Origin: a virus | Taxonomy: Duplodnaviria; Heunggongvirae; Uroviricota; Caudoviricetes | Virus record (IMG/VR): IMGVR_UViG_3300028914_000001 | Coordinates: 317,489 to 381,488 of that record | Strand: one strand, 5' to 3' | Length of the DNA: 64,000 bases | Shown here: piece after piece, positions 8,374-37,127 of the stretch | How the letters are laid out: every line of letters begins with the position of its first letter | Numbering within the stretch: the first letter of the stretch is position 1 | Position numbers and translations under genes: made by a program | Notes under the pieces: model-generated | The model's database searches: none | Told to the model about the DNA's origin: nothing | What the model saw: only the letters and a program-made list of their open reading frames with translations

Positions 8374-8382
8374 GATAATCCC

Positions 8383-9496: not shown

Positions 9497-9504
9497 CTAA
9501 AAAT

Positions 9505-10118: not shown

Positions 10119-10130
10119 GAGACATGGACT

Positions 10131-10517: not shown

Positions 10518-10520
10518 TGG

Positions 10521-10549
10521 TTGACAACCTTTTCGTATTTATCTATATT
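10521..10549 (+). promoter_or_regulatory. sigma70-type promoter for nadE operon
   Basis: TTGACA-N17-TATATT. Confidence 0.8.
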
Positions 10550-10580
10550 TCCATTGAAAATATCAAAAACGAGGTATGAT

Positions 10581-11405: not shown

Positions 11406-11408
11406 ATC

Positions 11409-11861
11409 ATGAGCAGTCTTTATGTAGGAGAGATATCTCTCGACACGTTCAAGGAGGTGTGCGAACGCCACCATCTTGAAACCGAGACGCCATCAGAAGA
11501 CGGAATGGGGTTGTTCTGTGCTGTCCTCAACGTGACGGAAGACGTGTTCATGCTTATCACGTACTCGGACGAGGCCGATGGCCGCAAGTACGTGAGCCTG
11601 TTCGCATCTAACCGCAAGACGGGTTCCACGCAGAAGATAAGTCACGTCCCTGCGTACCACAACAACCTCATCAGCGCAATCAGGACGGCAAACCGTTTTT
11701 ACGACGACACCAAGGCAAGGGGGCTTGCAGTAGTCCCCCGCAAAATAAAGAAGGATGACAATGAAGGTAATGGTAACGGGCCACAGGCCAGAGAGAATAA
11801 CGGGCAGGGAACAGGAAATCAAGGAATGGCTGACGAAGAAGGTCGAGGAACTGAAACCTAG
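11409..11861 (+). CDS. hypothetical protein
   Basis: ORF after nadE; 3' end overlaps next gene. Confidence 0.55.
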   Translation: MSSLYVGEISLDTFKEVCERHHLETETPSEDGMGLFCAVLNVTEDVFMLITYSDEADGRKYVSLFASNRKTGSTQKISHVPAYHNNLISAIRTANRFYDDTKARGLAVVPRKIKKDDNEGNGNGPQARENNGQGTGNQGMADEEGRGTET

Positions 11862-12255
11862 CGACTGCATCTCCGGGATGGCCCAGGGTGCCGACCAGAT
11901 TTATGCGGAGGTCGCTTATGAAAAGGGTATTCCTCTTATTTGTGCTTGGCCTTATGAGCGCAAGCTTCATCCTGTTGAGCAGAAGTATCACGACTATGCG
12001 GAAGTGAACCATGTTGCCTTCCACAAGTTCCAGCCAAGCTGCTATGCCACCCGTGACAAGTGGATGGTGGACAACTGCGACATCGTCCTTGCCGTATGGG
12101 ACGGAAACCCTGTCGGCGGCACTTACGACACGATTGAGTACGCCAAGCAGAAGCACAAGCACATCTACCTCTTCCCTTGGACTGCGGAATCAATCACTGA
12201 GATTATCCCGATGAACCCTCCGCAGAAAACACCCGACGGTTGGACCCTCTACTAG
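11761..12255 (+). CDS. SLOG-superfamily (YspA-like) protein
   Basis: VTGHRP, ISGMAQGAD, RDKWMVDNCD, VWDG..GGT. Confidence 0.85.
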   Translation: MKVMVTGHRPERITGREQEIKEWLTKKVEELKPSDCISGMAQGADQIYAEVAYEKGIPLICAWPYERKLHPVEQKYHDYAEVNHVAFHKFQPSCYATRDKWMVDNCDIVLAVWDGNPVGGTYDTIEYAKQKHKHIYLFPWTAESITEIIPMNPPQKTPDGWTLY

Positions 12256-12264
12256 GAGCGAAAC

Positions 12265-12474
12265 ATGTCCAAGTTCAGCAAGAAGGAAAGGGCCAACATC
12301 GCCAGAGTCCGCAAGGAAATGAAGCAGACTCGGGAATACAAGGATTTGCTCGTGTTGAAGGAAAAGTTCAACCGAAAGGAAATAACCGAAACCGAGTATA
12401 TCGAAGAAATGGGGAAACTCCTGAAAGGAATCCAGGAAGCCCCGCAACCAATAAATCTTAAAACATCAACTTAA
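12265..12474 (+). CDS. hypothetical protein
   Basis: AGGAG RBS. Confidence 0.55.
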   Translation: MSKFSKKERANIARVRKEMKQTREYKDLLVLKEKFNRKEITETEYIEEMGKLLKGIQEAPQPINLKTST

Positions 12475-12484
12475 TGGAGTAACC

Positions 12485-12955
12485 ATGAACAACCTCAGTC
12501 AACTCGAACAGGCAATCGCCATCCCCACCGCTATCGTAGCCGACCTCAACAAGGCGAAGGAATATATCGACGCCGACAAGAAGGATGAAGCAAAGCAGCT
12601 TATCGACAAGGTGGCAAAATTCATGCAGTCGCAGGCCGACATGGCAAAGCAGCAGTATGACGCAATCATGAAGAAGCACGAAGAGGCGATGGAAGTCATG
12701 AAGAAGGACAAGCACGTTGACATCAATGACCCGTTCATCATGATGCTCAATGAAAGCACCTACACTTTCAAGCGCAAGGAATGGGATGCTGGCATCCGCT
12801 ACATCCGTGACCAGGACAAGAAGACTGTCTGCCGTGCCCGCAACGTCGGTGGCCTCCTCACCGATATTGAAAAGACTGACCTCCAAGACCCGTTCGCTAG
12901 CCTCCAGATGCAGGCTCCCGCACAGCAGGCAGCAAGCCCAATCATCAAGGGTTAG
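12485..12955 (+). CDS. hypothetical helical protein
   Basis: GGAG RBS, strong codon bias. Confidence 0.7.
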   Translation: MNNLSQLEQAIAIPTAIVADLNKAKEYIDADKKDEAKQLIDKVAKFMQSQADMAKQQYDAIMKKHEEAMEVMKKDKHVDINDPFIMMLNESTYTFKRKEWDAGIRYIRDQDKKTVCRARNVGGLLTDIEKTDLQDPFASLQMQAPAQQAASPIIKG

Positions 12956-12958
12956 TCC

Positions 12959-13216
12959 ATGACCAAGAACGAGTTCGTAAAGGCTTGCGAAAAGGTCGGA
13001 TGCACAGTTTCCGAAGGGAGGGTGATGCTCGGGGATATCCAACTCGGCTACTACTGGAACGACAGTTTCGATATAGTGGCCGACCCCAAGATTTTCAACC
13101 TTAGGGCAACCTGGAAGTACACCCAAGTCGACCTCAACACTTTCAAGGTTCTCCTTAAAGACGTGGTCGACGGAATCAAGAAATCAAAGGAAGTCAAAGA
13201 TGCTTCGAGAAATTAA
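12959..13216 (+). CDS. hypothetical protein
   Basis: ORF in operon. Confidence 0.6.
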   Translation: MTKNEFVKACEKVGCTVSEGRVMLGDIQLGYYWNDSFDIVADPKIFNLRATWKYTQVDLNTFKVLLKDVVDGIKKSKEVKDASRN

Positions 13217-13481
13217 CAAAGACTATGTCAACCTCAATCTAGTCGAGGTTGTGCGCCCGATTGAAACTGACAAGATAGTGACAGGCTACCAAATCATTTT
13301 GATATCGGGACGCAATTACACGGTAAGCAAGAAAGTAGGAGATTCTATCCGTCTCGCAATGAATGCCAGCAGTACCACGGTAGTAGGAAACGCTGCCAAG
13401 AAGAAATCAGATAAAAGCCTTCAGGAAGTCCTCCAAATGGCAAAAGCTGTTAACAACCCGTTGAAAGGTAAGTTGAAATGA
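13200..13481 (+). CDS. hypothetical protein
   Basis: ORF in operon. Confidence 0.6.
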   Translation: MLREINKDYVNLNLVEVVRPIETDKIVTGYQIILISGRNYTVSKKVGDSIRLAMNASSTTVVGNAAKKKSDKSLQEVLQMAKAVNNPLKGKLK

Positions 13482-14104
13482 GTGATTGGCTTAACAACAT
13501 CAAGGCGTTCGGTGACACTAAGCTGGAACTCCGTGCAGTAACCTTGTTCGAGGAGTTCAAGAAGGTTGTCATCAAGGCTGGGGTTGAAAATCCAGACGAG
13601 TATGCGGAAAACATGTTCGACCGCATTATGCACATCTTCAAGACCACCGAAAGGACATACTGCGTCGGTCCGCATGACGGCGTAATCGACTCGTTCTTCG
13701 GGCCGTACCGATTCCTTAGCAACTTCGAACCGTGTACCGTGGAATACGAGGGGATGACCTACAACTGTTCCGAAGCTGCATACCAGGCAGCTAAGACGAC
13801 GGATGTTTCCCTCCGTATCGCCTTCGCTACGATGAACGGTTCCAAGGCGAAGTTTGCTGGCCAGAAACTCCCGATTCGAGCAGACTGGAACGATGTCAAG
13901 GTCGATGTTATGTACCAAATCGTGAAGGACAAGTTCTCCCGCAATCCAGAGTTGAAAGAGAAGCTCCTCAGTACGGGAACTCTCCAGCTCATAGAGGGCA
14001 ACTACTGGGGCGACAAGTTCTGGGGTATCTGCAACGGGGAAGGCGAAAACCATCTCGGCAAGATTCTCATGAGGGTCCGCAGGGAACTGTCCAAACAAAT
14101 TTAG
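13478..14104 (+). CDS. NADAR (YbiA-like) domain protein with N-terminal extension
   Basis: FLSNF, SEAAYQAAK, KFSRNPELKEKLLSTG, WGDKFWG, GENHLGKILMRVR. Confidence 0.92.
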   Translation: MSDWLNNIKAFGDTKLELRAVTLFEEFKKVVIKAGVENPDEYAENMFDRIMHIFKTTERTYCVGPHDGVIDSFFGPYRFLSNFEPCTVEYEGMTYNCSEAAYQAAKTTDVSLRIAFATMNGSKAKFAGQKLPIRADWNDVKVDVMYQIVKDKFSRNPELKEKLLSTGTLQLIEGNYWGDKFWGICNGEGENHLGKILMRVRRELSKQI

Positions 14105-17281: not shown

Positions 17282-17893
17282 ATGAAAATCTATTTCGTTA
17301 GACACGCCCCCACTTCCGCAAACAGTACTGGCACGATGGCTGTCGGCTACGAGAATGCCGACATCACGCTACTGGACAAGCCGGACGACTGGGAAGATAC
17401 TGTTGGTTGTCACATCCCCGCAGAAGCCCGCAGGGTTATCCTCAGTTCTCCTACGAAGCGCTGCGTCAGCACCGCAAAGATGCTGTTTGACACATATCCG
17501 ACCGAGCTGACCGAACTTCTCGGTGAGTTCGACTGCAAGGCGCTCGGGAAGCTTAAATTCTGGGAGATATCCGAGACGGAGTTCACCCAGAAGGTGTTCC
17601 TGCCCGCAGCCACTATGGAAAGCCGTGCGAGGGCCATCCTGAGAGAACTCGTGAACAATGTACGGCACGAGGAACAGGTGGATTCTTTTGTCGCCATATC
17701 CCACGGTATGGTGATACGCTACCTGTACCATTTTCTGAACGGCAACCCAGGCATTTCCGCCTACAAAGTAATCAACTCGGTCGGATTCCGCTTTTCAAAC
17801 CTCGACCTGCTCGTGGTTGACACCGACAAGATGAAAACCGAGGATTACCACTGGAATAAGCCCATCGACCATGCCGGGGTAGTTGAACACTGA
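17282..17893 (+). CDS. histidine phosphatase superfamily protein
   Basis: FVRHA, SSPTKRCVSTA, ISHG. Confidence 0.85.
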   Translation: MKIYFVRHAPTSANSTGTMAVGYENADITLLDKPDDWEDTVGCHIPAEARRVILSSPTKRCVSTAKMLFDTYPTELTELLGEFDCKALGKLKFWEISETEFTQKVFLPAATMESRARAILRELVNNVRHEEQVDSFVAISHGMVIRYLYHFLNGNPGISAYKVINSVGFRFSNLDLLVVDTDKMKTEDYHWNKPIDHAGVVEH

Positions 17894-17906
17894 AAATGGA
17901 GGCAAT

Positions 17907-18125
17907 ATGGCCGCAACTGTATTTTGGATAGTGTTGGGCATTGCTGGCGTTACTGGTATCGTCTGCGGCACCATGGTCACTATCAAAAAACTATCTTTCC
18001 GTTGCAAGCATCAATGGAAAACAGTCAAAGAAATCGACATTGTTGCTCAGGGCTCCGTAATCGGCTACCGCTATATCCAGCAGTGTGTACATTGCGGGGC
18101 AATCCAGCATGTCGATTGCGACTAA
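17907..18125 (+). CDS. small membrane/Zn-binding protein
   Basis: N-terminal TM, CKH..CVHC. Confidence 0.55.
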   Translation: MAATVFWIVLGIAGVTGIVCGTMVTIKKLSFRCKHQWKTVKEIDIVAQGSVIGYRYIQQCVHCGAIQHVDCD

Positions 18126-18136: not shown

Positions 18137-18439
18137 ATGAGTAACTACAAAACTACGCTCGAAATCGTCGGCCAGCCAAACCGCAACGGTCGCATATACT
18201 CTGACGAGCTTCTTGCAAAGTACAACGAGTCCTGCCCGAAGGAAATGCGTTACGGCGACAGGGTGGTTGGCCACCTGGACCATGTGTCCTATGATGGAGA
18301 ACGCTACATTGCCGCAATGACCCTCAACGAGAACATCGGAAATCCGCCAATAGGCATCCGAGGCGTTGCCGACATCTCCGAAGACGGAGAATGCCGTGCA
18401 TTGAGCATCGAGTCGATAGATTTTATCAAGGAGAGGTAA
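18137..18439 (+). CDS. short, degenerate prohead-protease (T4 gp21)-like protein
   Basis: NRNGRIY, GHLDH, IGIRG (SSRG equivalent without Ser); GGAGG RBS. Confidence 0.55.
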   Translation: MSNYKTTLEIVGQPNRNGRIYSDELLAKYNESCPKEMRYGDRVVGHLDHVSYDGERYIAAMTLNENIGNPPIGIRGVADISEDGECRALSIESIDFIKER

Positions 18440-18440
18440 C

Positions 18441-18698
18441 ATGGTGCATACCCCAGAAGAAGAGAAACTTTTAAAATACTGTGAAGCCAACAAGATTGAT
18501 TTTGACGGAGGGTTTCACCGTTCGATGGTAATCCTTGCAGAAGACTGCTTCAATGAAATGAAGAAGCTGGGTGACAAGGCGAAAGTCCGTGATATACACA
18601 AGTATCTCGCAGCTGTCCATCTTGTGACCGTCGAACGGATGGAAGCGGGTTTTAGGAAACATCTCGCCGAACTGGAACGATTGAACAAGGACTCCTAA
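18441..18698 (+). CDS. hypothetical protein
   Basis: GAGG RBS. Confidence 0.6.
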   Translation: MVHTPEEEKLLKYCEANKIDFDGGFHRSMVILAEDCFNEMKKLGDKAKVRDIHKYLAAVHLVTVERMEAGFRKHLAELERLNKDS

Positions 18699-18712
18699 TT
18701 GGAGGAAACCTC

Positions 18713-19474
18713 ATGAAAGATGACGACGATTATGTATTGGATGAAACCGTCCAGATGTTCTGGCCCGTTTGTATTGAACCCTTAGATGAAGACAAGTGGT
18801 TCGACGATGACTACGACGGCCCTACCTACGATACCCCCGATGAACAGATTCCGCTGCTTCCTGACCTGTTCGACAAATTCTCGACTTCGTGGCAGTCGAT
18901 GCACAGCCCGTATGCCCCCGAGGATATCCCTAAGGGAGTGAAGGTGCATGGCATATTCTTCACGTTCGATAAGGAGCTTGGCGTGTGCGTATGTGCGAAC
19001 TACAAGTTCTCGTACAAGCTTCTCCGTAGTTCGGAAGGGTTCAAGAAGGTAATCAAGAAGCTCGCCGAGGACATTGAAACGGGTTTCGACTCGTGGCTGA
19101 ATACCCATTTCACATTCACGCATGAGGGCAAACGGTTCGACGTAACATCTGGACCATCTGCAAAGCGTATCGTGGCCCCAGTGGAATGCCATGACCAGCT
19201 GTACTTCAAGTGGGACGATGTCGATGATGTAGGCGACGTGGAGATGGCCCTTTCCCACGATAACGACTGTTTCAACATCATCTGGCGACCGAAGGAACAC
19301 AAGAAGACTCTCGACAGGGTTAAGAGGCGTCTCGAAACATTCACTAAACTAGCGGTCGCCCGTGGTGTAAATCCCGACGAGGAGTATTGCATCATCGAGG
19401 ACAAGAAGACCCTCGAAGCTTTCAAGTTCGTCAAGCAGCACAAGAAACAGTATTTTTTCGGACATTTCCATTAA
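18713..19474 (+). CDS. hypothetical protein
   Basis: GGAGG RBS. Confidence 0.7.
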   Translation: MKDDDDYVLDETVQMFWPVCIEPLDEDKWFDDDYDGPTYDTPDEQIPLLPDLFDKFSTSWQSMHSPYAPEDIPKGVKVHGIFFTFDKELGVCVCANYKFSYKLLRSSEGFKKVIKKLAEDIETGFDSWLNTHFTFTHEGKRFDVTSGPSAKRIVAPVECHDQLYFKWDDVDDVGDVEMALSHDNDCFNIIWRPKEHKKTLDRVKRRLETFTKLAVARGVNPDEEYCIIEDKKTLEAFKFVKQHKKQYFFGHFH

Positions 19475-19484
19475 CGGAGTAAAC

Positions 19485-19949
19485 ATGAACATTTTTAAGG
19501 AATTTATCATCTATCTTGCAAACAAGTTCCAGGAACAGCCAAGCAAGGAAGTCATCGATTTGCGTAATCAGATTAAAGAAGCGAACAGCCTGTATTACAC
19601 CTCCGCCGAGGAAAATACAAAGCTCCGCAACAAGCTTAGCCGACTGTCGTTCAAGACCACATGGTATGACCGTGACCATTACCCCATGCCATTAAACCGC
19701 CGCCTGATTGTACAGGGTAAAGATGGCAAGTATTATGTCGGAAGAACTATGAAGGATGTCCAAGGACGGACGGAATTCCATATCGAATACGAACTGACTC
19801 CTGTCAATCCGAAACTAATAGGCTCTGTCATGTTGGAAATCCTTGGGATGTCTTCATGGGCGAAGCAATGGAAGGTCTTCGAGTTTCCTGAAGACAAGGA
19901 GTCAGAACCGAAGAAATCAGCCGAGGATTGCAAGATAGGTGCCCGATAG
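19485..19949 (+). CDS. hypothetical protein
   Basis: GGAG RBS. Confidence 0.65.
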   Translation: MNIFKEFIIYLANKFQEQPSKEVIDLRNQIKEANSLYYTSAEENTKLRNKLSRLSFKTTWYDRDHYPMPLNRRLIVQGKDGKYYVGRTMKDVQGRTEFHIEYELTPVNPKLIGSVMLEILGMSSWAKQWKVFEFPEDKESEPKKSAEDCKIGAR

Positions 19950-19958
19950 TATAAACTG
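19950..19958 (+). promoter_or_regulatory. putative late promoter
   Basis: TATAAACTG, 5 nt before ATG 19964. Confidence 0.6.
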
Positions 19959-19963
19959 TTTGC

Positions 19964-20785
19964 ATGAACAGGAAGGCACTTTTTGAAGAACAGCTCGTGA
20001 AAATGGGTCTCCCCCCGAAGACGAAGGACATGGTCATGAAACTCAATGACGCATGTTTCAAGGAGCGGGATGACAAGAACCCGTGTATCGACGAATACGG
20101 GTTCTATAAGGACCCGATGTCTTGTGACATCGAGACGTTGAAACGGGCGTGGGACGAACCCATCAGGGAGGACAAGAACCCGTTTGAAATCAAGGAAGTC
20201 GACGGGCCTACCCACGACAAGCCAATCGGCGGTTACATCCCGATTAAATCACAGCAGGAAAAGGACGACGAGGAATACGCCGACGACCCGCTGTACCAGT
20301 TCTCCAAGCGTATCCGCCACGAGTTCGACCGAAAGAGCCGATACAGACTTCCGTTCAGCGGCAAGTATCAAATGAATTACATCGTCGGCCCTGAGGTTGA
20401 CGACCCCGAGAACCACATGTTCGACGGATTCCCTAAGACGCTTGATTTCATGAAGGAACACAGGGGATGGCTCTGCGGCCAGATTTCATCACACAGCATG
20501 CCTGAATACATGGGCGGCATGGTCAAGATGCTGATAGGCAGTTGGTATATCACCCTGCTCGTCGTGAAGGACCCAGATTCTTCTAGGGTGGACTACTGTG
20601 TGTACGGTGGGCCCATGCTCTACATGAAGCACGGGACGATGTATGACGGAGACTGCCTTGCGACCAGCAATACAGACGACGTGGAAGAAATCAAGATGAT
20701 TTGCCACAAGATTCTGCACGAGGCGTACGACAATGCGGTCAAGGCACAGTTCCAGTCCATCCGCAAGACCAGTCTCGACGTTTAA
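19964..20785 (+). CDS. putative virion/head-internal protein
   Basis: Late motif upstream; shared N-terminal leader. Confidence 0.55.
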   Translation: MNRKALFEEQLVKMGLPPKTKDMVMKLNDACFKERDDKNPCIDEYGFYKDPMSCDIETLKRAWDEPIREDKNPFEIKEVDGPTHDKPIGGYIPIKSQQEKDDEEYADDPLYQFSKRIRHEFDRKSRYRLPFSGKYQMNYIVGPEVDDPENHMFDGFPKTLDFMKEHRGWLCGQISSHSMPEYMGGMVKMLIGSWYITLLVVKDPDSSRVDYCVYGGPMLYMKHGTMYDGDCLATSNTDDVEEIKMICHKILHEAYDNAVKAQFQSIRKTSLDV

Positions 20786-20818
20786 TCGACATTTTACTCA
20801 AAATCTCAGTGGAACCAC

Positions 20819-20847
20819 TTGCCAAAGTGGTACAAAATAGGTATATT
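20819..20847 (+). promoter_or_regulatory. sigma70-type promoter with inverted repeat over -35
   Basis: TTGCCA-N17-TATATT; ACCACTT-GCCA-AAGTGGT. Confidence 0.7.
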
Positions 20848-20879
20848 TATAAAAAAAGTTTCATTACAAGGAGAAACCT

Positions 20880-21164
20880 ATGTTCGGTATCGAACCTAAT
20901 CTTGACAAAGTGTTCGGCGGAATGTTGAAGCCGAAGCAGCAGAAACTCGTTGATTACACCCAGTATCGCATGGAACGTGATTCCGTCCGTTACGACATTT
21001 TTGGCCGTAGGGTGTGCAACTCCGCTCTTATGTGGCACGAAAGCGCCCGTTTCTGGTTTGACCGTAAGGAAAGAGTAATCATTCCTGAACTGAGCCCGTA
21101 CATGGATGTCCTCGGGGCAAAGCTGTTCCCGGATACGTTGGTCCGTTTCGGAATCCATCCTTAA
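20880..21164 (+). CDS. hypothetical protein
   Basis: AGGAG RBS. Confidence 0.6.
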   Translation: MFGIEPNLDKVFGGMLKPKQQKLVDYTQYRMERDSVRYDIFGRRVCNSALMWHESARFWFDRKERVIIPELSPYMDVLGAKLFPDTLVRFGIHP

Positions 21165-21181
21165 TCCGTTCGGAGGAACCC

Positions 21182-21919
21182 ATGGGTACAATCCACGAAT
21201 ACATGAGTGCATATCCTTACTACGACGAGAACAAGTGGAGTTGGTCCATCGAGAATCCGAATAAGGATAATGCCCTGTTCATGCGTTACCGTGCCAGGAA
21301 GGGTAAGGATTATCGCAACATGGACAAGCTTCCGTTCTTCGACTCAATCGAGAAGGATGCAAACCAGTTCGGTATGCGGTCGTGTACCTTTACCGACATC
21401 TTTGGCATTACCTGGAAGGGAACGAAGGGTTGCCACATGGTTTCCGATGACCCTGACTACGAACAGCACCTTTACTACTACGACGAGGAAAGCGACGGAT
21501 ACCTTGTCTCTGACGAGTACACGCAGGATAATCCGCCCGCTGATTTCGTTAAGTTGAGAAACCCTAGATGGGATATGTGGGTTGATGTCAAGGGTATCAA
21601 GACGCTCTACTACAAATGGGTTCAGAACAATAACCACCTGTTCAAGGATTCCGTGTTCTATGCGGAATACGATGACGGTACTAAGCTTTCGTTCTACGAC
21701 GTTATAGGTCTGATGTACGGACTGAAACGTCTTCGTCCAGACCTCTACGATGATGTCCTTCCAGAAATTGAACGTCATTTCGAGAACCTGCGTGATAACG
21801 AACGTCTTGAAGTCAAGGAGTTCTGGCCTGGGATGACCGCCCGTGAGTATTTCGAGAAATGGAACGAGGCCAAAGATTACTCTGAAAAGACTGGCGAGCC
21901 TATCGCTACGGACGCCTAA
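21182..21919 (+). CDS. hypothetical protein
   Basis: GGAGG RBS. Confidence 0.7.
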   Translation: MGTIHEYMSAYPYYDENKWSWSIENPNKDNALFMRYRARKGKDYRNMDKLPFFDSIEKDANQFGMRSCTFTDIFGITWKGTKGCHMVSDDPDYEQHLYYYDEESDGYLVSDEYTQDNPPADFVKLRNPRWDMWVDVKGIKTLYYKWVQNNNHLFKDSVFYAEYDDGTKLSFYDVIGLMYGLKRLRPDLYDDVLPEIERHFENLRDNERLEVKEFWPGMTAREYFEKWNEAKDYSEKTGEPIATDA

Positions 21920-21939
21920 TTACACTTAAAGGAAACACA

Positions 21940-22449
21940 ATGAAAACAATTCGTCACTCGGTTTTTGAAACCAATTCCAGTTCTTGCCATGTAGTCACCT
22001 TGCTGAACTCATACGAAATGGAACAGTTCAATAATGGTGAACTGCTCGTCGAGTTCGGCAGAAGCCAAGGCGCAAAGATTGTCGCAAACTTCGTTGAGAA
22101 GTTCCGTTTTGGCTATGACCTCGAACACCTGCAATTCGGCTACGATTACAAGGAAGAAAAACCCACCTATTACGACCTTCCGAGGGAAAGCTTGGAGAAA
22201 CTGAGAGATGCCTTGTGGGATTTGCTTCAGGAAGGCATGAAGACTCATATCGAGCATTTTGATGACAAGGTCGCCTCGATATTCTCTGATGCTGGCGTAA
22301 CGGATGAATTGTACATCGAACGGGTTAAAAACTACATTGAAGACTTTGCTGGTGTATCTACCGTTAATCACCTCATGGAAGACATGACGACATACACGAT
22401 GCCTAACGGCGAGGTCATGCATTTCAGTTGTCATGAGTTCGAGTGTTAA
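21940..22449 (+). CDS. phage hypothetical protein with FETNSSS N-terminal motif
   Basis: IRHSVFETNSSSCH. Confidence 0.7.
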   Translation: MKTIRHSVFETNSSSCHVVTLLNSYEMEQFNNGELLVEFGRSQGAKIVANFVEKFRFGYDLEHLQFGYDYKEEKPTYYDLPRESLEKLRDALWDLLQEGMKTHIEHFDDKVASIFSDAGVTDELYIERVKNYIEDFAGVSTVNHLMEDMTTYTMPNGEVMHFSCHEFEC

Positions 22450-22450
22450 T

Positions 22451-22894
22451 ATGAGAACGTGGCTCCAACTAAGTATTCTCAGGAGTGCTGCTGACAACGG
22501 TTACCGTTTGGCTATAAATGGTACACTGATTGACCAGAAGCCTCCTTTTGGTTCGTCTGAGATTGAACTGAGCACCCATAAGCTGGCCGACCTTTTCGAT
22601 ATCGACACCCTCGTTGACATGCTTGATTACAAGAAGGAATGCGAACGGTTGAAAACGCTCTTCTTCGTCTCCAACAGGGAGCTGTCCGACTGGGTTGACG
22701 CCAAGAAAGGACGCCGGATTCATGTGGTCAAGCCGAACCAGATGATTAACCAAGGAATATCCTACGAGAATTGGCCGTATTCGGAGGACACTGCGGAACT
22801 GAACGCCAGGAACGCTGGTGACATCTTCGTGGTTGAGGCAGGGTCCAGCACCCTGGAGCACCTGACCCGACGGGCGATTGGCCTGGATGTCTAA
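22451..22894 (+). CDS. hypothetical protein
   Basis: ORF in operon. Confidence 0.55.
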   Translation: MRTWLQLSILRSAADNGYRLAINGTLIDQKPPFGSSEIELSTHKLADLFDIDTLVDMLDYKKECERLKTLFFVSNRELSDWVDAKKGRRIHVVKPNQMINQGISYENWPYSEDTAELNARNAGDIFVVEAGSSTLEHLTRRAIGLDV

Positions 22895-22922
22895 GGTGAC
22901 GCTTACTAAATATGGAGAAAAA

Positions 22923-23192
22923 ATGAAAAAGGTAATTCTATTTATCATGGCTTTTGCCATGGCGGCATTTGCCGATATTAAACTGGACTTCCAGGTCTCG
23001 GTTAACCGCATGGGCTGTTCCCTCATCCAGTGGGTCGAAAACGGCTATGAATCTGGGGTGAAGTGGAAGCACTACGGCAAGTTCGCCTGCAAGGAGGAAA
23101 TCAAGGCTCCCGTCAAGATTGTCGGCCTGAAATTCCTGTATGTCGGCGAGAACTTGAAGGGCGAGTACATTTACGTCTATGGCGAGGACTAG
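22923..23192 (+). CDS. secreted/periplasmic small protein
   Basis: Signal peptide MKKVILFIMAFAMAAFA. Confidence 0.65.
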   Translation: MKKVILFIMAFAMAAFADIKLDFQVSVNRMGCSLIQWVENGYESGVKWKHYGKFACKEEIKAPVKIVGLKFLYVGENLKGEYIYVYGED

Positions 23193-23531
23193 ATGGCCAC
23201 GATGATTCCAGACATAGCCTTGGAAACCACTCTTGAATGGCTGGCGAAGTTCAACCGCCACGAGTACTTCACCAAGGGACTCTACAAGAAGCTTCCTAAG
23301 TACAAGGAATGCGGTGTTCGCCGTGAAAAGACTGAAATCCAGGTGGCTTTCATCTGCAAGGCGTTGCAACTGAAAGGCATCTATACGACACCTTGCGGAG
23401 TCGCCTGGTCAAAGATATGGGACGATTCCAAGACGGTCGATGATTACCTGAAACCATATCAGGATATCATCGACGGCTATGTGAAATGGTGTGAAGAGCA
23501 GAACAATAAGATAAGGGCTAATCATGGCTGA
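23193..23531 (+). CDS. hypothetical protein
   Basis: GAGG RBS. Confidence 0.6.
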   Translation: MATMIPDIALETTLEWLAKFNRHEYFTKGLYKKLPKYKECGVRREKTEIQVAFICKALQLKGIYTTPCGVAWSKIWDDSKTVDDYLKPYQDIIDGYVKWCEEQNNKIRANHG

Positions 23532-23736
23532 AACATGGCTTGGAACATCGAAGATGGAACAGGAGGCGAACTACTTCGCACACTGCCTGCTCATGCCCGA
23601 GGAGATGCTGATACCAGACTGGGAGAAGTCATCCAAGGATTCCGCAGCGGTAGACAAGCTCGCCGATGAATACCATGTCACACGTACGACCATGCTGGTA
23701 CGACTGAGTGGACTCGGCCTATACAAGGAGGACTAA
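23524..23736 (+). CDS. ImmA/IrrE-family C-terminal fragment (no HExxH)
   Basis: EQEANYFAHCLLMP..LADEYHVT..RL. Confidence 0.7.
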   Translation: MAETWLGTSKMEQEANYFAHCLLMPEEMLIPDWEKSSKDSAAVDKLADEYHVTRTTMLVRLSGLGLYKED

Positions 23737-23737
23737 A

Positions 23738-23932
23738 ATGTCTGACGTAATTAAAGGATTGACAAACGACCTGCTTTGGAAGAATATCTACAAGTTCTCA
23801 TCCAAGTGGAATCTGGCCATAATCTGCGTTGCAATCCCAGAACCCGTCGTCGAGCAGCTGAGACGGGATTTTTCAGCGGCCTATCCCGACAAGGATTTCG
23901 ACACCGAGTGGGAAACCTGTATAAAGGAATAA
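23738..23932 (+). CDS. hypothetical protein
   Basis: GGAGG RBS. Confidence 0.5.
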   Translation: MSDVIKGLTNDLLWKNIYKFSSKWNLAIICVAIPEPVVEQLRRDFSAAYPDKDFDTEWETCIKE

Positions 23933-23936
23933 TATT

Positions 23937-24218
23937 ATGGCAGAGTCGATGGATACCAAGATTGCTAAATACAACATACGTTCCCGTTATACATTCGCCA
24001 TGCGCAACCTGATGATTGCTCAATCGGTTAACGAGAAGGTAAAGAATTTGAGGCATACAATAACAGGATTGCCTGTTCCAGACACGTTCGATACGAAACT
24101 TACGTTGCATACACCTAAGGATTGGATTGTCATTTGGTCTAAGGTCCACGTCAGGGTTAGTATCTATCTTGCCAACCTTCGGTATAATGCGTGTCTAAAC
24201 AATGAAAACCGTCAATGA
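23937..24218 (+). CDS. hypothetical protein
   Basis: ORF in operon. Confidence 0.5.
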   Translation: MAESMDTKIAKYNIRSRYTFAMRNLMIAQSVNEKVKNLRHTITGLPVPDTFDTKLTLHTPKDWIVIWSKVHVRVSIYLANLRYNACLNNENRQ

Positions 24219-24230
24219 CGAATAAATCAC

Positions 24231-24304
24231 TGTCCCGTAGTTTAACTGGAAAAATGTGGCCCTCCGAAGGCCAAGACGTGCGTGTTCGAATCACGTCGGG
24301 ACAA
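24231..24304 (+). tRNA. tRNA-Arg(CCG)
   Basis: Acceptor TGTCCCG/CGGGACA; anticodon arm TGGCC-CTCCGAA-GGCCA; T arm GCGTG-TTCGAAT-CACGT; CCA not encoded. Confidence 0.88.
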
Positions 24305-24325
24305 CTTTAATACTTAGGTAGAATC

Positions 24326-24586
24326 ATGAAACCATCCGATATTCCTGTTTCCGCATCCGTGGTGCGACTTGCTCCAAGCATGAAGATGATTGGACAGAAG
24401 GTTGCGGAAAGACGCAAAAAGCTGATGATAACCCAGAAGGACCTTGCCGAGATGGCCGGGGTTTCGTCAAGGATGGTAAGCATGGTTGAACGAGGGCTGG
24501 CGAACCCTACTGTAACAGAACTTAGCGACATGATTAAACCTATCGGGTTTGTAATCACGTTGCAGGAACGAGTGATTAACCCGTGA
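24326..24586 (+). CDS. XRE-family helix-turn-helix regulator
   Basis: RRKKLMITQKDLAEMAGVSSRMVSMVERGLANPT. Confidence 0.9.
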   Translation: MKPSDIPVSASVVRLAPSMKMIGQKVAERRKKLMITQKDLAEMAGVSSRMVSMVERGLANPTVTELSDMIKPIGFVITLQERVINP

Positions 24587-24593
24587 GGCAATT

Positions 24594-24758
24594 ATGTGTG
24601 AATTTCTATCGTACCTCTACAATGAACAGTCATGGATACTCTGGATGGCAGCGTTCTGGGTTATCGGAGTGCTGATGGTTGTCATCGACTATTTTCAGAA
24701 TAAAAACAAACCACCCAAGCCAAAGGAAACCCGCTGGCACAAGGAATTGTGGGGTTAG
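24594..24758 (+). CDS. small membrane protein
   Basis: GAGG RBS, one TM helix; not in ORF track. Confidence 0.45.
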   Translation: MCEFLSYLYNEQSWILWMAAFWVIGVLMVVIDYFQNKNKPPKPKETRWHKELWG

Positions 24759-24766
24759 AAACACTT

Positions 24767-24973
24767 ATGGATGAACTGACTGATGAAGAAATCGAGAAGT
24801 ATATCCCGTACAGAAAGGAAATACAGGATATTCTCGAAGAAGACGGCTTGGTTATAACCCGTATAGATGACAACGGGTCTGAAAACCTATGCCAATGTGC
24901 GACGGCTGAGGAAGTTTTTACTGCGGGTTGCCGATATGTAATCGGGCGCATGAAACAGGAGGGATTGTTATGA
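24767..24973 (+). CDS. hypothetical protein
   Basis: ORF in operon. Confidence 0.5.
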   Translation: MDELTDEEIEKYIPYRKEIQDILEEDGLVITRIDDNGSENLCQCATAEEVFTAGCRYVIGRMKQEGLL

Positions 24974-25245
24974 GACCTGCAAACTGGATTGAATTGGGGC
25001 AGAACGACACCGTGGAATTCGATGTCCACTGCGTGATGAAAAAGTGCTGGGCAAACGAGTTCCTGTCCATGCTGGCAGACATGCAGCGTCTCGGCGAGAT
25101 GGGCTGCAGCAGGATGAGGGGCATGTATTGCGACGGCGATGGCGACTTCCGTCCGAAGTTCCACCACAACCTTGAAGGGTTCACCGAGACCGAGCACAGG
25201 GTAAGCAAGGAAGACCCGGCCATTTGGTTCTGGGATGCTGGGTAA
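24970..25245 (+). CDS. hypothetical phage protein
   Basis: GCSR..DGDGDFRP motif; GGAGG RBS. Confidence 0.6.
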   Translation: MRPANWIELGQNDTVEFDVHCVMKKCWANEFLSMLADMQRLGEMGCSRMRGMYCDGDGDFRPKFHHNLEGFTETEHRVSKEDPAIWFWDAG

Positions 25246-25264
25246 TTAAAATAGGAGACTGACA

Positions 25265-25825
25265 ATGGCGACGAAATCAAAAGAAGACTGGGAAGCCCAG
25301 ATGGAAGCTCGACGGAAAGAACGTGAGGAGTATGACTTCAAAGAATGGGGATACCATGAAACTAAACTTGGCGAATTCCTTATAGACAGGTTGGCCCACA
25401 AGGAAAAGCCGAAAGACTTGTTCGATATGTGGAATGACCGTTCCACGGAGCAATTCAATCACCTTGCTTCTTTCGCAAGGCGTGTAGTATGCGGATTGAA
25501 AGCTGACGAAAGTGTGAAGGAAGAACCTGACGGCAAGACGACTTACCAGTATTCATACAAGGATAAAGTTCTGTTGGCCGTGGTAATTTACAACGGGAAT
25601 TACACCCTTCTATTCCCTTGCATGAACGACATCGTTGACGGCGACATAAGACGATATGCGGATAACCCGTTGTTCCCGTTCCTTAACTTCTTCCAGTGGT
25701 TCGACACCACCATATACGGACCACAACAGGGTCTGTATAGCCTATATTTCCGAATGCTCATGGGCTACCTTGTTTACAAGTTCCCTGAAACAAGAACCCG
25801 TTTCCTGCATGCACCAAAGGGGTGA
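25265..25825 (+). CDS. hypothetical protein
   Basis: AGGAG RBS. Confidence 0.65.
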   Translation: MATKSKEDWEAQMEARRKEREEYDFKEWGYHETKLGEFLIDRLAHKEKPKDLFDMWNDRSTEQFNHLASFARRVVCGLKADESVKEEPDGKTTYQYSYKDKVLLAVVIYNGNYTLLFPCMNDIVDGDIRRYADNPLFPFLNFFQWFDTTIYGPQQGLYSLYFRMLMGYLVYKFPETRTRFLHAPKG

Positions 25826-25827
25826 TT

Positions 25828-26346
25828 ATGAACGATAAATACCAGGAATTTCTACAAAAGCGCCATCCTGAACTCATAGCGGAGGCGGAATCTTTCATCA
25901 ATGCCGATACGGAGGAGCCTAAGTCAAAGCCGAAGAAACGTACGAAAATGGACCGTAGCAGCTGGGAGTACATCTGCCGTTTGATGCCGAAGTTGAAGAA
26001 CTTGGCACATGTCCGTATACCTGGTGGCGGAATGGGAAGAATGGATGGGTGGTATGTATATACCGTAGCTACCGTCGGATGCCGTAAGGAGAAAGTGGGC
26101 ATCAGTATCTGGGCGCACGATTACAAGTGTGGCAAGCATTTCACTGAAAGGATTCCTCTTACGGGCAAGGAGCATTTTCTCGAATTTTATACGAGGTTCG
26201 GCAACGCCTCCACATCGTGCTACCAGAGCATGACCAACCTGCCTGGTCATAAATGCATGGATGGGCACGGTAACGTATATCCTACTGACATACCTCACAA
26301 GAGAAAAGAAATCTACCGATATCTTGGAATAGAGACAAAGGAGTAA
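25828..26346 (+). CDS. hypothetical protein
   Basis: Coupled ORF. Confidence 0.6.
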   Translation: MNDKYQEFLQKRHPELIAEAESFINADTEEPKSKPKKRTKMDRSSWEYICRLMPKLKNLAHVRIPGGGMGRMDGWYVYTVATVGCRKEKVGISIWAHDYKCGKHFTERIPLTGKEHFLEFYTRFGNASTSCYQSMTNLPGHKCMDGHGNVYPTDIPHKRKEIYRYLGIETKE

Positions 26347-26348
26347 AT

Positions 26349-26666
26349 ATGGGTGTAGATTACAAATGGGGCGGAAGCGCTGGCGGAATGCGTTTTGGAC
26401 AGGAAATCGACCAGGTCGCCAAGGTATTTGGCGGCAAACGAATCGAGGGAAGCAAGGGACCCAATAGGTACGGGCTTCCAGACGGGACAAACCCGTGCGT
26501 CGTGAAATTCTTCGACCACCTGTACGGACCGCTGAGCGTTGAAGAGACAAAGGAAGTATGGAAGGAGTTCCAGACGCATCCCGAAATCGAGCAGATAATG
26601 CCCGAGATGTGGAACGAGTTCAAGTGCGACGCAATGTACGACGAAGAGTTCGAGTTGAGTTACTAG
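26349..26666 (+). CDS. hypothetical protein
   Basis: AGGAG RBS. Confidence 0.6.
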   Translation: MGVDYKWGGSAGGMRFGQEIDQVAKVFGGKRIEGSKGPNRYGLPDGTNPCVVKFFDHLYGPLSVEETKEVWKEFQTHPEIEQIMPEMWNEFKCDAMYDEEFELSY

Positions 26667-26693
26667 ACAGAGAAGATTTAACAAAAGGCAATT

Positions 26694-27437
26694 ATGAGCA
26701 ATTTCAACCATCCGTATATATACGAAGGCGGCGAATACAATCATCTGACTAGCCAGAACGAATGCCGTGTTGTGACCGCTACAAGGAAGCTTGGAGCCCG
26801 TTTCTACAACCCTATGCGTTACGACATGCTGAAACAGTGGCTTCCACACAATTACGAATGCCCTGACAAGGAGTGCATGATTCATGTCATCGCCTGCCCG
26901 TGCATCATGTGGAATGACCTCGGTGAAGACAAGATGAACGAAAAGTTCAAGTTCTGTGCCTGTATCGAACCTGAAATCGACATGACCAAGTTCAGCCCGT
27001 TGTGGCATCGTGTCGGCAGGAAAACATTGTTGTTCATATTTGGTTCCCCGATGTATGAAATCGCCCAATGCTCTGCACCTAACGGAAAGTGTTTCTACTC
27101 GATGATATTCCAGGTGGACGAGGAGGCATACGAGCATCTCGAAACCCGTGCAGGCTCGTTCGCAAACCTCCCGATAGGCTCGTCCATCAATGCCTTCATG
27201 GCTGCTGTCAGGCGGAACCCGTTAAGGCCCCATCCGTTCAAGAATGCAGTCCCGCCCGTTGAAGTCAAGACGCTAGCGGAGTTCATCGAAGCGAAGTACC
27301 CGGATATCATGAAGGAATACAAGGAAGAGCTGAAACGGATAACCAAGCTTTCATACGAGAGCCTTCCAGGGGAAATCACCAGTTTCAAACAAGGAAATGA
27401 AAATGCAAGTAACATCGACGATACAGTTCAAGTTTGA
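26694..27437 (+). CDS. hypothetical protein
   Basis: ORF in operon. Confidence 0.65.
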   Translation: MSNFNHPYIYEGGEYNHLTSQNECRVVTATRKLGARFYNPMRYDMLKQWLPHNYECPDKECMIHVIACPCIMWNDLGEDKMNEKFKFCACIEPEIDMTKFSPLWHRVGRKTLLFIFGSPMYEIAQCSAPNGKCFYSMIFQVDEEAYEHLETRAGSFANLPIGSSINAFMAAVRRNPLRPHPFKNAVPPVEVKTLAEFIEAKYPDIMKEYKEELKRITKLSYESLPGEITSFKQGNENASNIDDTVQV

Positions 27438-27828
27438 CCCAAACAAGGAATACAAATGTCCCAAGGACAAGATTGATGCCTTGGTCGAGTTCATTACAAA
27501 TCATGTGCAGGAATGTCCAGCGCACTGGATTATCATGTCTCCAGAATTAGTGTCCGTGCTGATGACGGCGAACGTGTTGGCTCCGAAGCCCGTTGTTTCC
27601 AATACCAGTGACACGGGTAGGGAATTTATGTTCCATCCAACGAACTCGGCGGTTACACTTAATCTTTACGCATGTCAAGGAGAAATGAACGCAGTGGTGT
27701 TCCCCGACTATTCAGACAGCCTTTACATCCTGAACTGTGGACATCCGAAGGATTTCATCGGCGACATGGACGCTGGGTCAGGCTGGGAAAGCAATGATTC
27801 AATCAAACTCGCAAGGAGAATAATATGA
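27397..27828 (+). CDS. T4 gp23-like major capsid protein fragment
   Basis: AHWIIMSPELVSVLMTANVL..DTG..VVFPDY..YILNCG resembles the gp23 segment NFIIxSxxVASAL..AGVL..DDTG..VYIDPY..VGYKG. Confidence 0.45.
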   Translation: MKMQVTSTIQFKFDPNKEYKCPKDKIDALVEFITNHVQECPAHWIIMSPELVSVLMTANVLAPKPVVSNTSDTGREFMFHPTNSAVTLNLYACQGEMNAVVFPDYSDSLYILNCGHPKDFIGDMDAGSGWESNDSIKLARRII

Positions 27829-28172
27829 TTGAAGAAGCCAAGGATATTTTTCGTGACGAAACCTGCTTCTATGTAATTGCCGCAATCAAGAATGGCGATG
27901 GCGGGTTCATTAAGTTCTGGAAGTCCAAGGCGTCTGGTGGAGAATGGGTTGACGATATTGCCAAGTCCAAGCACTATACGACGCTCGGTGTCGCTGCAAG
28001 GGAACTCCGTAATGAAAACGGCTATCTCAGATACTGGGGAAAAGTTCCGATGATACAGACGCACGGAGATTCCGTCCGTTTCTCCGTATGCCATGCAAGG
28101 GCTAATGTAGTGGTCGTGAAGGAAGAAAAGTTTAACGTAGACCGTGCAAATGCACAGGAAAGGGGAACATAA
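27825..28172 (+). CDS. hypothetical protein
   Basis: AGGAG RBS. Confidence 0.6.
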   Translation: MIEEAKDIFRDETCFYVIAAIKNGDGGFIKFWKSKASGGEWVDDIAKSKHYTTLGVAARELRNENGYLRYWGKVPMIQTHGDSVRFSVCHARANVVVVKEEKFNVDRANAQERGT

Positions 28173-28173
28173 T

Positions 28174-28500
28174 ATGATTGAAAACAAGGAAGAATACAGG
28201 TGTAAACGGTCAGAACTTTCATCCAAGAAGGACGAGCTTAGTGAAAGTATCGATATGGTCGATGCCGTCAGGGAAATGCTGAAAACGTACAATGTTCGGC
28301 GGTTGTCCGCATTGAAGGCGAAGCTTGAACAGGACTATGATGCGGTCGCAGATGAGTACTACAAGTTCATCAAGGAAGAAAATGAAGTCTTTGACGAAAT
28401 CTGCAAGAAGTTCAGCGCCAACCAGATTGAATGCTGGTTTGTACAGGGGCGTGACGTTGTTGACCTTGTAAATTCATACCTGTCCGGCGAACTGAAATGA
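28174..28500 (+). CDS. hypothetical helical protein
   Basis: ORF in operon. Confidence 0.6.
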   Translation: MIENKEEYRCKRSELSSKKDELSESIDMVDAVREMLKTYNVRRLSALKAKLEQDYDAVADEYYKFIKEENEVFDEICKKFSANQIECWFVQGRDVVDLVNSYLSGELK

Positions 28501-28636
28501 GAGAAGCCATGTCGGAAGAACTGGAAGAGGAACGCTACCGTGAGCAGCGGATGCGTGAAGAAGCCGAGGCGGAGGAACAGTTCTGGCGTGAAGCCATGCT
28601 GAACTACGACTATGAGCGTGGTGACTGGAAATACTA

Positions 28637-28663
28637 AAAAGCTCTCCGATTTGGAGAGCCTTT
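28637..28663. terminator. bidirectional intrinsic terminator
   Basis: AAAA-GCTCTCC-GATTT-GGAGAGC-CTTT between convergent genes. Confidence 0.7.
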
Positions 28664-28666
28664 CCT

Positions 28667-29464
28667 TTATTCATCGTAGTCGTCGAAGAACAGTCCGTAC
28701 TCCCTCATCCATGCACGGGCCCCGATTTGGTCGGCCCGTTTTTTCATTTCCTTCACGTTGAAGTTGTACACGTCCCACCAAGGGATTTCAACAAGGAGGA
28801 ACGGCGATTTTGCACCCATAGCTTCTACGCAGAGCTTGTAGAAGGCGTTGTCGGTCCCGTTGGTAGCGGACGATATGATTATCTTGTTGAATACCCCGCA
28901 GGTAATTGTCGGGAAGAATGCCTTGACTATGTGTTCCTGTTGTTCCTTGGTTGCGAACGCAAAGTCGTCTAGGAACATGTAGTTGACACGGGGTGTTATC
29001 AAGTAGGTTTTACTGGAATCTTCTACGTTATCGAGTGTACCGTATGACTTTGCTACGATAACGGAGTCTGTTGTAGTGTTTCTAATCTCGCCCTTATTGA
29101 ACTTGATTGACAACCCGTCATTGTACCATTCCGCAGGAAGGTTTTTTAGAGAGAAGGCGATTTTACCCACTATTTCGCATGCCCTTGCCAGCTTGGTTGA
29201 AACGACCGTTATCGTAACACCTTCCTCGAACAGCAGCTTGTGCATGATGAACAGCGTCGCTTCAAGCGTGGAGCCAGACTGTCTCGGCTGTTTCAGAATC
29301 AGGTTTCTCTTGTTGCCGCAGATTGGCGGAAGCTGCATAAGGGTCAGAACCTTCCGTTGGTAACCCCTCGTGGACATGCGTTCTGTCCCGTTGCAGTTCT
29401 GTACATAGGTGAATTTCGCAAGGTCGAAAATGTTGTCCTTGCAGTTAAGGAATGATTTACTCAT
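28667..29464 (-). CDS. terminase large subunit ATPase domain only, degenerate (T4 gp17-like)
   Basis: RGYQ adenine motif, PRQSGST (Walker A K->S), YMFLDDFAF (catalytic E->D), ISSATNG; ends before the nuclease domain. Confidence 0.8.
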   Translation of the reverse strand: MSKSFLNCKDNIFDLAKFTYVQNCNGTERMSTRGYQRKVLTLMQLPPICGNKRNLILKQPRQSGSTLEATLFIMHKLLFEEGVTITVVSTKLARACEIVGKIAFSLKNLPAEWYNDGLSIKFNKGEIRNTTTDSVIVAKSYGTLDNVEDSSKTYLITPRVNYMFLDDFAFATKEQQEHIVKAFFPTITCGVFNKIIISSATNGTDNAFYKLCVEAMGAKSPFLLVEIPWWDVYNFNVKEMKKRADQIGARAWMREYGLFFDDYDE

Positions 29465-29543
29465 ATTGTACCCCGTATGTTAACCAGCAGACGGAATTGC
29501 CGACTGGCCGAAGCATAATTAAAGTATATTTTCACGATTTCCC

Positions 29544-29572
29544 TTGACAGGAACGGGTTTTTGAGCTATATT
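29544..29572 (+). promoter_or_regulatory. sigma70-type promoter
   Basis: TTGACA-N17-TATATT. Confidence 0.8.
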
Positions 29573-29589: not shown

Positions 29590-30009
29590 ATGAGAATGCC
29601 TAGATTTTATTACATAATGAAGCACAAGTTGCATGCGTTCGTCGCCCGCAACTTCACTGGATGTGCATACTGCAACGAAAAGAAATTGTGGAAGATGTTC
29701 GGCGAAAAGTGCGTCCCGCTGGACAACTTCAATACTCTGATGGATAGCGTCCCGGTCGGAGACGGCAAGACAAAGTACGCCTGCTACTTCTACCCCAAGC
29801 AGCGCTGCATCGATGTCAACCGAGTGGACGAGAACGGGAAGTACATCACTGTCGAATCAATCTTCGTACACAACTGCCCCGAATGCGGAAGGCCATTGCC
29901 GTATATGCTCGGTAACAAGAAAAAGAAGGAAAAGGTGGTCATCGCTTCGACGCCCAAGGGCCCTAACGTGTTCTACAACATGTGGAAAAAGGCGGTTGGA
30001 ACAAGATGA
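29590..30009 (+). CDS. Zn-ribbon hypothetical protein
   Basis: CAYC..CPECGR. Confidence 0.65.
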   Translation: MRMPRFYYIMKHKLHAFVARNFTGCAYCNEKKLWKMFGEKCVPLDNFNTLMDSVPVGDGKTKYACYFYPKQRCIDVNRVDENGKYITVESIFVHNCPECGRPLPYMLGNKKKKEKVVIASTPKGPNVFYNMWKKAVGTR

Positions 30010-37113: not shown

Positions 37114-37127
37114 TAGTTTATAAACTG
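37114..37127. promoter_or_regulatory. palindromic, bidirectional late-promoter motif
   Basis: AGTTTATAAACT gives TATAAACT on both strands between divergent genes. Confidence 0.6.

Follow-up and report, generated by a model that had tools for sequence, protein, structure and literature searches.

Many bacterial immune receptors recognise molecular patterns provided by core virion proteins such as terminase and capsid protein, and the known sensors (Avs, CapRel and Lit) are switched on by binding their trigger. Avs7, Avs8 and Avs10 wrap the HK97-fold major capsid protein (MCP), and Avs systems sense terminase (PMC13581612; bioRxiv 10.1101/2025.06.06.658234). In phage T4, the corresponding head-morphogenesis proteins are the protease gp21, the capsid protein gp23 and the terminase gp17. 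The stretch of DNA analysed here (the window, 64,000 nucleotides) originates from a virus record of 422,150 bp that possesses direct terminal repeats (bases 317489–381488 of IMG/VR record IMGVR_UViG_3300028914_000001) and harbours three small open reading frames (ORFs), designated prot100, mcp143 and ter265, which resemble single domains of a gp21-type protease, a gp23-type capsid protein and a gp17-type terminase, respectively. The interpretation favoured here, considered about equally likely to hold or to fail, is that they represent three separate head-protein derivatives which consist of one domain each, have lost the chemistry of their parents, are kept by selection, act by binding and play a role in conflict.

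The three ORFs are part of a dense series of small plus-strand ORFs (window 16–31 kb) containing a single minus-strand gene (ter265). Coordinates and lengths (100, 143 and 265 amino acids, aa) agreed with those given in an earlier, sequence-only reading of the window. Positions refer to the window unless marked as genome positions.

prot100, 18137–18439, plus strand: 100 aa, predicted mini gp21/assemblin-fold protein; NRNGRIY motif and His49 kept, Ser nucleophile absent
mcp143, 27397–27828, plus strand: 143 aa, similar to the C-terminal third (A-domain) of capsid proteins of the gp23 type with HK97 fold
ter265, 28667–29464, minus strand: 265 aa, terminase ATPase domain of the T4 type encoded on its own; no other gene of the stretch is on this strand
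ORF139, 29590–30009, plus strand: CxxC...CxxC zinc-ribbon-like protein; divergent neighbour of ter265 in eight of eight related loci

The likely start of mcp143 is the second Met (27403), which is the start used by its relatives and yields 141 aa.

Intact, full-length counterparts of all three were identified elsewhere in the genome. The resident TerL (genome 277683–279347, 554 aa) matches PF03237 at 1e-21, covers positions 52–536 of phrog_2 and carries the motifs SRQVGKS, LLYLDEFAF and TSTPNG. The resident gp21-type protease (genome 154046–154771, 241 aa) was recognized by PF03420 (8e-14) and phrog_207 (2e-31), and the resident gp23-type MCP (genome 215589–217439) by PF07068 (2e-65). As the sequence-only reading had supposed, the small ORFs (genome 335–347 kb) lie far from these head genes (protease, MCP and TerL at 154, 216 and 278 kb, respectively), the distances amounting to 57–190 kb. 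Structural homology to gp17, gp21 and gp23 was detected for ter265 (2o0h, E 6e-8), prot100 (5jbl, Z 7.5) and, with moderate confidence, mcp143 (6uzc, Z 5.7), respectively. The proposed likeness to head proteins thereby stands firmly for the terminase ATPase-only ORF and by several lines of evidence for the protease-like ORF, and receives moderate support for the capsid-like one.

The terminase-like identity of ter265 is firmly predicted from its sequence. The protein matches three TerL families (phrog_5989 at 3e-12, as well as phrog_2 and phrog_36964), all of which are likewise matched by the resident TerL, and its residues 5–229 align with residues 135–340 of T4 gp17 in the above match to 2o0h; no Pfam threshold was reached. 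The Walker A motif reads RQSGST, with Ser replacing Lys, and the Walker B motif LDDFAF, with Asp replacing the catalytic Glu. Across the family, the Walker A Lys is absent from all 34 aligned members (PRQSGST or PRQTGAT), and the residue following the Walker B Asp varies between D, N and E, most of the listed members having DD and single members DN, ND, DE or EE. The equivalent changes in T4 gp17, i.e. substitutions of K166 and E256, even E256D, abolish function. The ter265 family comprises 37 clusters of mostly 255–277 aa with 49–95 % identity, located on contigs of up to 420 kb. Constraint is highest at residues 1–80 and 201–265 (major-residue frequency 0.86–0.96), while residues 81–200, which include Walker B, are looser (0.37–0.77).

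The ter265 proteins end at an EY..G..F linker, where the nuclease domain would begin. A terminus placed exactly at the ATPase-nuclease linker would suit a split gene whose other half resides elsewhere, and the same explanation could be extended to prot100 and mcp143. Against it, complete TerL, protease and MCP genes are present, a tblastn search of the genome with the resident TerL revealed no second nuclease-like region, and ter265 is flanked by the zinc-ribbon protein gene and a 46-aa ORF. The profile of the nuclease domain (PF17289) misses even the resident TerL, and a search with it is uninformative on this domain. The split-gene explanation was rejected on account of selection (see below) and the full-length copies, and its probability is close to nil.

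With respect to origin, ter265 shares 27 % identity (58 bits) with the resident TerL and 29 % (93 bits) with cyanophage TerLs. In a maximum-likelihood tree, the ter265 family forms a long-branch clade (100/100) that groups weakly (83/93) with the TerLs of T4, cyanophages and rhizobiophages and is not placed with the resident TerL clade. Tree and scores do not demonstrate a recent internal duplication, and the term paralogue, used in this sense, is thus not substantiated for ter265.

The adjacent ORF139 shows a peculiarity of its own. In its last 24 aa (KVVIASTPKGPNVFYNMWKKAV, 29938–30009), a resemblance to TerL motif III was noted (tblastn with the resident TerL: 44 % over 25 aa, E 0.09). This tail is present here and in one further locus (L011) only, the six other relatives ending about 20 aa earlier, and it may be a captured scrap of terminase beside a terminase-like gene.

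For prot100, several lines of evidence point to the T4 gp21/assemblin protease fold. At the sequence level, prot100 aligned with phrog_207 over 38 residues around the NRNGRIY region at E 0.002 (1e-3 in the genome scan), and no Pfam match was obtained, the gathering score of PF03420 included. An AlphaFold model was built from 15 homologues with a pLDDT of only 65. Among 48,161 chains, the best structural neighbour of this model was T4 gp21 (5jbl; Z 7.5, rmsd 3.1, 99 of 100 residues), followed by the protease of the herpesvirus VZV (1vzv, Z 6.1) and then by unrelated MCE barrels (Z ≤5.8). For a second model of prot100, that contained in the ESM Atlas itself, the nearest structural cluster consists of PF03420 members to 100 % (TM 0.68). 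Alignment of prot100 with T4 gp21 and the resident protease revealed the Asn and Arg of the NRNxRxY motif and a His (His49) to be invariant. The position of the Ser nucleophile corresponds to an invariant Gly73 in one alignment and is deleted in the other; prot100 possesses an invariant G73-I74-R75 where the protease has S-x-R-G, and no conserved Ser exists in the G-I-R-G segment of the family. The absence of this nucleophile in prot100, together with that of the Walker A Lys and catalytic Glu in ter265, agrees with the inert appearance attributed to these proteins earlier.

Other searches with prot100 were negative. Foldseek against PDB yielded no significant match for the models of prot100 or mcp143, and the prot100 family profile retrieved chance-level rows only from the PDB sequences, including assemblin at E 2. 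Comparison by hhalign of the prot100 family with the single resident protease sequence, and of the mcp143 family with the single resident MCP sequence, was not significant, and both family profiles matched only themselves in the phage's own genome. No relatives of prot100 were found in the IMG/VR scan, and tblastn against GenBank phages produced one chance-level row.

With moderate confidence, and judged from its modelled structure, mcp143 is a putative A-domain fragment of a gp23-type HK97-fold capsid protein, as indicated concordantly by three independent comparisons. In the structural search, T4 gp23 ranked first (6uzc; Z 5.7, 105 aligned residues, gp23 residues 309–521), most of the 50 listed rows were HK97-fold capsids or encapsulins, and gp24 (1yue) was found at Z 5.2. 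A Gp23 cluster was the top row of the shape search in the Atlas (TM 0.49). Comparison by hhalign of the mcp143 family with nine gp23-type MCPs placed residues 8–69 on MCP residues 281–353 (E 7.6e-4, probability 25 %); herein, the stretch around HWIIMSPELVSVL aligned with the capsid segment NFAICSPSIVAAI, which was also picked by the single-sequence comparison. The matches cover the C-terminal third of gp23 only, and mcp143 has 141 aa as compared to about 500 aa of a complete shell subunit.

No Pfam or PHROG match was obtained for mcp143, and the genome scan with PF07068 recovered the real MCP and two weak places, not mcp143. The mcp143 family profile had no match among the PDB sequences, tblastn against GenBank phages was likewise without match, and the profile search of 1.84 billion proteins returned small relatives only and no capsid protein. 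Two longer matches to the profile (868 and 209 aa) were taken as spurious, being repeat proteins (chitin-binding CBM_14 repeats in the case of the 868-aa protein).

Outside the window, near the right end of the genome, the last part of a 222-aa ORF (genome 412543–413361) shows similarity to the N-terminal region of the resident gp23-type MCP. PF07068 matches at this site (E 1.6e-5, profile positions 15–99; genome 413077–413361), the match continuing through one TGA and one TAG codon, and the segment looks like a degenerate capsid-gene fragment.

All three ORFs evolve under constraint (dN/dS 0.1–0.7). According to Nei-Gojobori estimates, dN/dS amounts to 0.12–0.74 for prot100, 0.12–0.40 for ter265 and 0.12–0.35 for mcp143, with most values <0.4 and all <1. 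Orthologues are intact and of equal length in each of the families (14–37 protein clusters per family, 49–95 % identity), and the family alignments of prot100, mcp143 and ter265 contain many invariant columns. These properties speak against decaying, functionless remnants of partial gene duplications. Decay as such would be in keeping with the stop-interrupted gp23-like piece at genome 413077–413361 and with the TerL motif III-like tail of ORF139 that is confined to two genomes; for the three ORFs themselves it was rejected on the grounds of selection and full-length copies, and is very improbable.

The rate of evolution distinguishes ter265 from the authentic terminase. For the same genome pairs, TerL displays a dN of about 0.06 and a dN/dS of 0.04–0.07, as compared to a dN of 0.15–0.24 and a dN/dS of 0.23–0.33 for ter265, which thus evolves about 3–4 times faster. 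In one pair of genomes (G003 and G004), TerL dN is as low as 0.007 (L044 vs L046), but ter265 dN is 0.29 (L014 vs L013); near-identity of TerL in combination with such divergent ter265 alleles indicates allele replacement at the ter265 locus.

The late motif TATAAACT was detected 65 times in the genome and seven times in the window, where 1.2 copies are expected. It is located 31 nt before the amidase-ORF575-TerL operon (genome 274810) and also before a small ORF that precedes the protease (genome 155005), and the one-mismatch variant AATAAACT is found 24 nt before the likely MCP start. The authentic head genes hence reside in operons headed by the motif or this variant; upstream of prot100, mcp143 and ter265 no TATAAACT is present, as had been noted before. 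The following regulatory elements were predicted in the stretch:

Late motif TATAAACT, 19950–19957, plus strand: sole copy within the stretch, situated 7 nt ahead of the ORF at 19964
Sigma-70-like promoter, 20819–20847, plus strand: 10/12; inside the plus-strand gene run that includes mcp143
GC-rich hairpin, 28641–28659, no strand assigned: terminator-like, located where the plus-strand operon and ter265 converge
Weaker sigma-70-like site, 29523–29550, minus strand: CTGTCA-16-TATACT, 9/12, upstream of ter265
Sigma-70-like promoter, 29544–29572, plus strand: TTGACA-17-TATATT, 11/12, just upstream of ORF139

Elsewhere in the window, a palindromic form of the late motif (AGTTTATAAACT, 37115–37126) provides TATAAACT to both strands between divergent genes.

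The distribution of the three genes differs between relatives. In the IMG/VR data, ter265 and ORF139 are neighbours in each of the eight loci, of which five contain mcp143 and three lack it, and a complete 419-kb relative contains ter265 and mcp143 and is devoid of prot100. A homologue of prot100 with 72 % identity is encoded on an unrelated phage contig of about 20 kb (L020:6001–6294, L021:6001–6294) that also carries genes for an integrase, two DNA methyltransferases and a Mu_F head protein; the 21 other called genes of this contig are all without match in the present genome. Judged from these sequences, the mini-protease gene evidently moves between unrelated phages. An Acb2/Tad1-like mark on a gene of L020 was below threshold (E 0.0047; 17.5 bits versus a cut-off of 27 bits) and was not used. 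As their distributions differ between relatives, prot100, mcp143 and ter265 are regarded as independent accessory genes rather than a linked set.

These findings bear directly on the proposal, put forward in the sequence-only reading, that the phage produces inert mimics of its own trigger proteins early and as a coordinated set, by which host sensors (STAND receptors of the Avs type, CapRel, Lit and some CBASS systems) would be occupied or inhibited before the authentic proteins are made. The three protein classes are indeed known triggers, the small proteins appear inert, are under selection and lack the late motif, and NAD-salvage and NADAR genes are found in the neighbourhood. The notion of a set was not borne out, however, since the genes are inherited independently and not together. 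That of mimics of the phage's own proteins is weakened as well: prot100 also occurs in an unrelated phage, and ter265, only distantly similar to the resident TerL, is no closer to it than to cyanophage TerLs and does not group with it. Moreover, as the sensors are activated by trigger binding, a mimic would have to bind without activating, and full-text literature searches retrieved no report of a trigger-protein mimic acting as inhibitor or decoy. The coordinated decoy set is therefore considered rather improbable. The same low probability is given to the more general proposition that large phages carry an undescribed class of early-made, dead, single-domain head-protein mimics whose non-productive binding to host sensors (Avs-type and others) would dampen recognition of the authentic proteins made late.

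According to the favoured interpretation, each gene would encode a single domain derived from a T4-type head-morphogenesis protein, namely the protease core of gp21, the A-domain of gp23 and the ATPase domain of gp17. All three proteins would have lost the chemistry of their parents and been kept by selection. Loss of catalytic residues combined with selection suggests action by binding, and stoichiometric binding is the most likely mode: each protein would occupy a partner surface normally taken by the full-length late protein or a similar one. Expression would proceed from non-late promoters, presumably early. The genes are inherited patchily, spread horizontally and evolve fast, and allele replacement and an accessory setting come in addition; these features favour a role in conflict over a constant function in assembling the phage's own heads. 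Candidate targets are, in falling order of probability, a host sensor of head proteins (less likely than not, and the first choice by a narrow margin), the assembly of heads or the packaging of DNA by a satellite or another phage in the same cell (nearly as likely), the phage's own assembly (somewhat less likely again) and any other target (a slight chance).

Several observations weigh against this interpretation. The P-loop region of ter265 is nearly invariant in the family, which would allow for nucleotide binding and even some residual activity. The mcp143 model is of low confidence (pLDDT 62), its structural scores are middling, and Z-scores below 8 can reflect a common arrangement. Sigma-70-like consensus matches were not commoner than in shuffled sequence (23 found versus 18.5 expected), for which reason early expression is a deduction. 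Finally, ter265 and ORF139 are present in every relative examined, as would also be expected of genes with a conserved function in the cycle of the phage itself.

This last point leads to the alternative that the three proteins take part in assembling the phage's own heads, be it as modulators or as minor components. In this case, the dead mini-protease could restrain the prohead protease or cleavage-site leaders, as T4 Inh does by other means, the A-domain piece could be a capsid accessory, and the ATPase-dead terminase subunit together with the zinc-ribbon protein could regulate the packaging motor. The pairing of ter265 with ORF139 in eight of eight loci and the very high conservation of the ends of ter265 would agree with such functions, and T4 itself encodes Inh, the full-length MCP paralogue gp24 and the stand-alone TerL-like vs.8. 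On the other hand, prot100 and mcp143 are dispensable in close relatives, ter265 attains a dN of 0.29 where TerL has 0.007, none of the three genes carries the late motif, and prot100 shares no sequence similarity with T4 Inh (hhalign E 0.31). On balance, an involvement in the phage's own head assembly appears unlikely, albeit less so than the coordinated decoy set.

Apart from the genes treated above, most ORFs of window 16–31 kb are without Pfam or PHROG family match, and megablast of the 12-kb stretch against GenBank phages was without match. The exceptions are a histidine phosphatase (17282–17893), an XRE-type helix-turn-helix (HTH) protein (24326–24586) and an ImmA/IrrE piece (23524–23736). 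The latter is a 70-aa ORF matching positions 70–123 of PF06114 only (E 3e-11); as the match covers only the C-terminal third of the ImmA/IrrE family, the ORF lacks the HEXXH part. It represents another truncated domain in the same stretch, the XRE-type HTH gene being located 600 nt downstream. Prot100 is adjoined by a 253-aa ORF (18713–19474) belonging to a four-member paralogue family of the genome (25–30 % identity; copies at genome 34.5, 41.9 and 405 kb) and is preceded by an 80-aa membrane-like ORF (17883–18125) with a 49 % identical copy at genome 1797–2033.

Directly upstream of the stretch, at window 5–14 kb, a cluster related to NAD metabolism was identified (5022–14104), comprising genes for a PncA-like isochorismatase, YqeY, an NMNAT-Nudix fusion, NAPRTase, NAD synthase, a weak SLOG match and NADAR. 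It constitutes a deamidating NAD salvage route plus ADP-ribose-related genes adjoining the orphan-gene stretch. Further downstream, a gene for an AAA-ATPase (phrog_1297) adjoins that of a 438-aa protein (phrog_1314, labelled HNH endonuclease) at 49493–51942; paralogues of this pair with 37 % and 31 % identity are located, separate from each other, in the structural region (genome 246962–248221 and 260771–261925).

Relative to the ATPase domain of T4 gp17 (2o0h, 3cpe; PHROG 5989, 2; PF03237), ter265 retains the YQ adenine motif, the RQxG of the P-loop, the Walker B Asp, a motif III and the closing EY..F. It differs from gp17 by lacking the nuclease domain, the Walker A Lys and the catalytic Glu and by residing outside late operons. 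With the T4 gp21/assemblin fold (5jbl, 1vzv; PF03420), prot100 shares the beta-barrel core, the NRNxRxY motif and the His at the catalytic position; in contrast to gp21, it has half the length and no Ser nucleophile and occurs in an accessory region and, in addition, in a phage that is unrelated. Structurally, mcp143 comes closest to the C-terminal A-domain regions of T4 gp23 and its paralogue gp24 (6uzc, 1yue; PF07068). While gp24 is a full-length shell subunit, mcp143 with its 141 aa cannot contain an N-arm, E-loop or P-domain.

T4 Inh, a late virion protein annotated as a minor head protein inhibiting gp21, sets a precedent for one possible role of prot100, i.e. that of a phage-encoded protease regulator. 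Selected, enzymatically dead single-domain copies of head proteins that reside outside late operons and show a turnover resembling that of conflict genes could represent an unrecognised layer of phage biology, be it as sensor blockers, as weapons against competitors or as regulators of assembly. A described protein of similar organization is T4 vs.8 (NP_049732, PHROG 1488; L038:12254–12913, annotated as hypothetical), a stand-alone 219-aa ORF among T4 early/middle genes which has no nuclease domain and matches the TerL family phrog_2 at E 1.7e-5. Unlike ter265, vs.8 keeps the Walker A Lys (P-loop GGRQSGKS). The match of ter265 to phrog_1488 is weak (E 0.092), and hhalign of the ter265 family with vs.8 aligned the P-loop regions at E 0.014 over 47 columns; in view of this marginal similarity, the two may be independent derivations. 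Stand-alone terminase-ATPase look-alikes thus already exist in T4, where vs.8 offers a tractable model for the role of such proteins.

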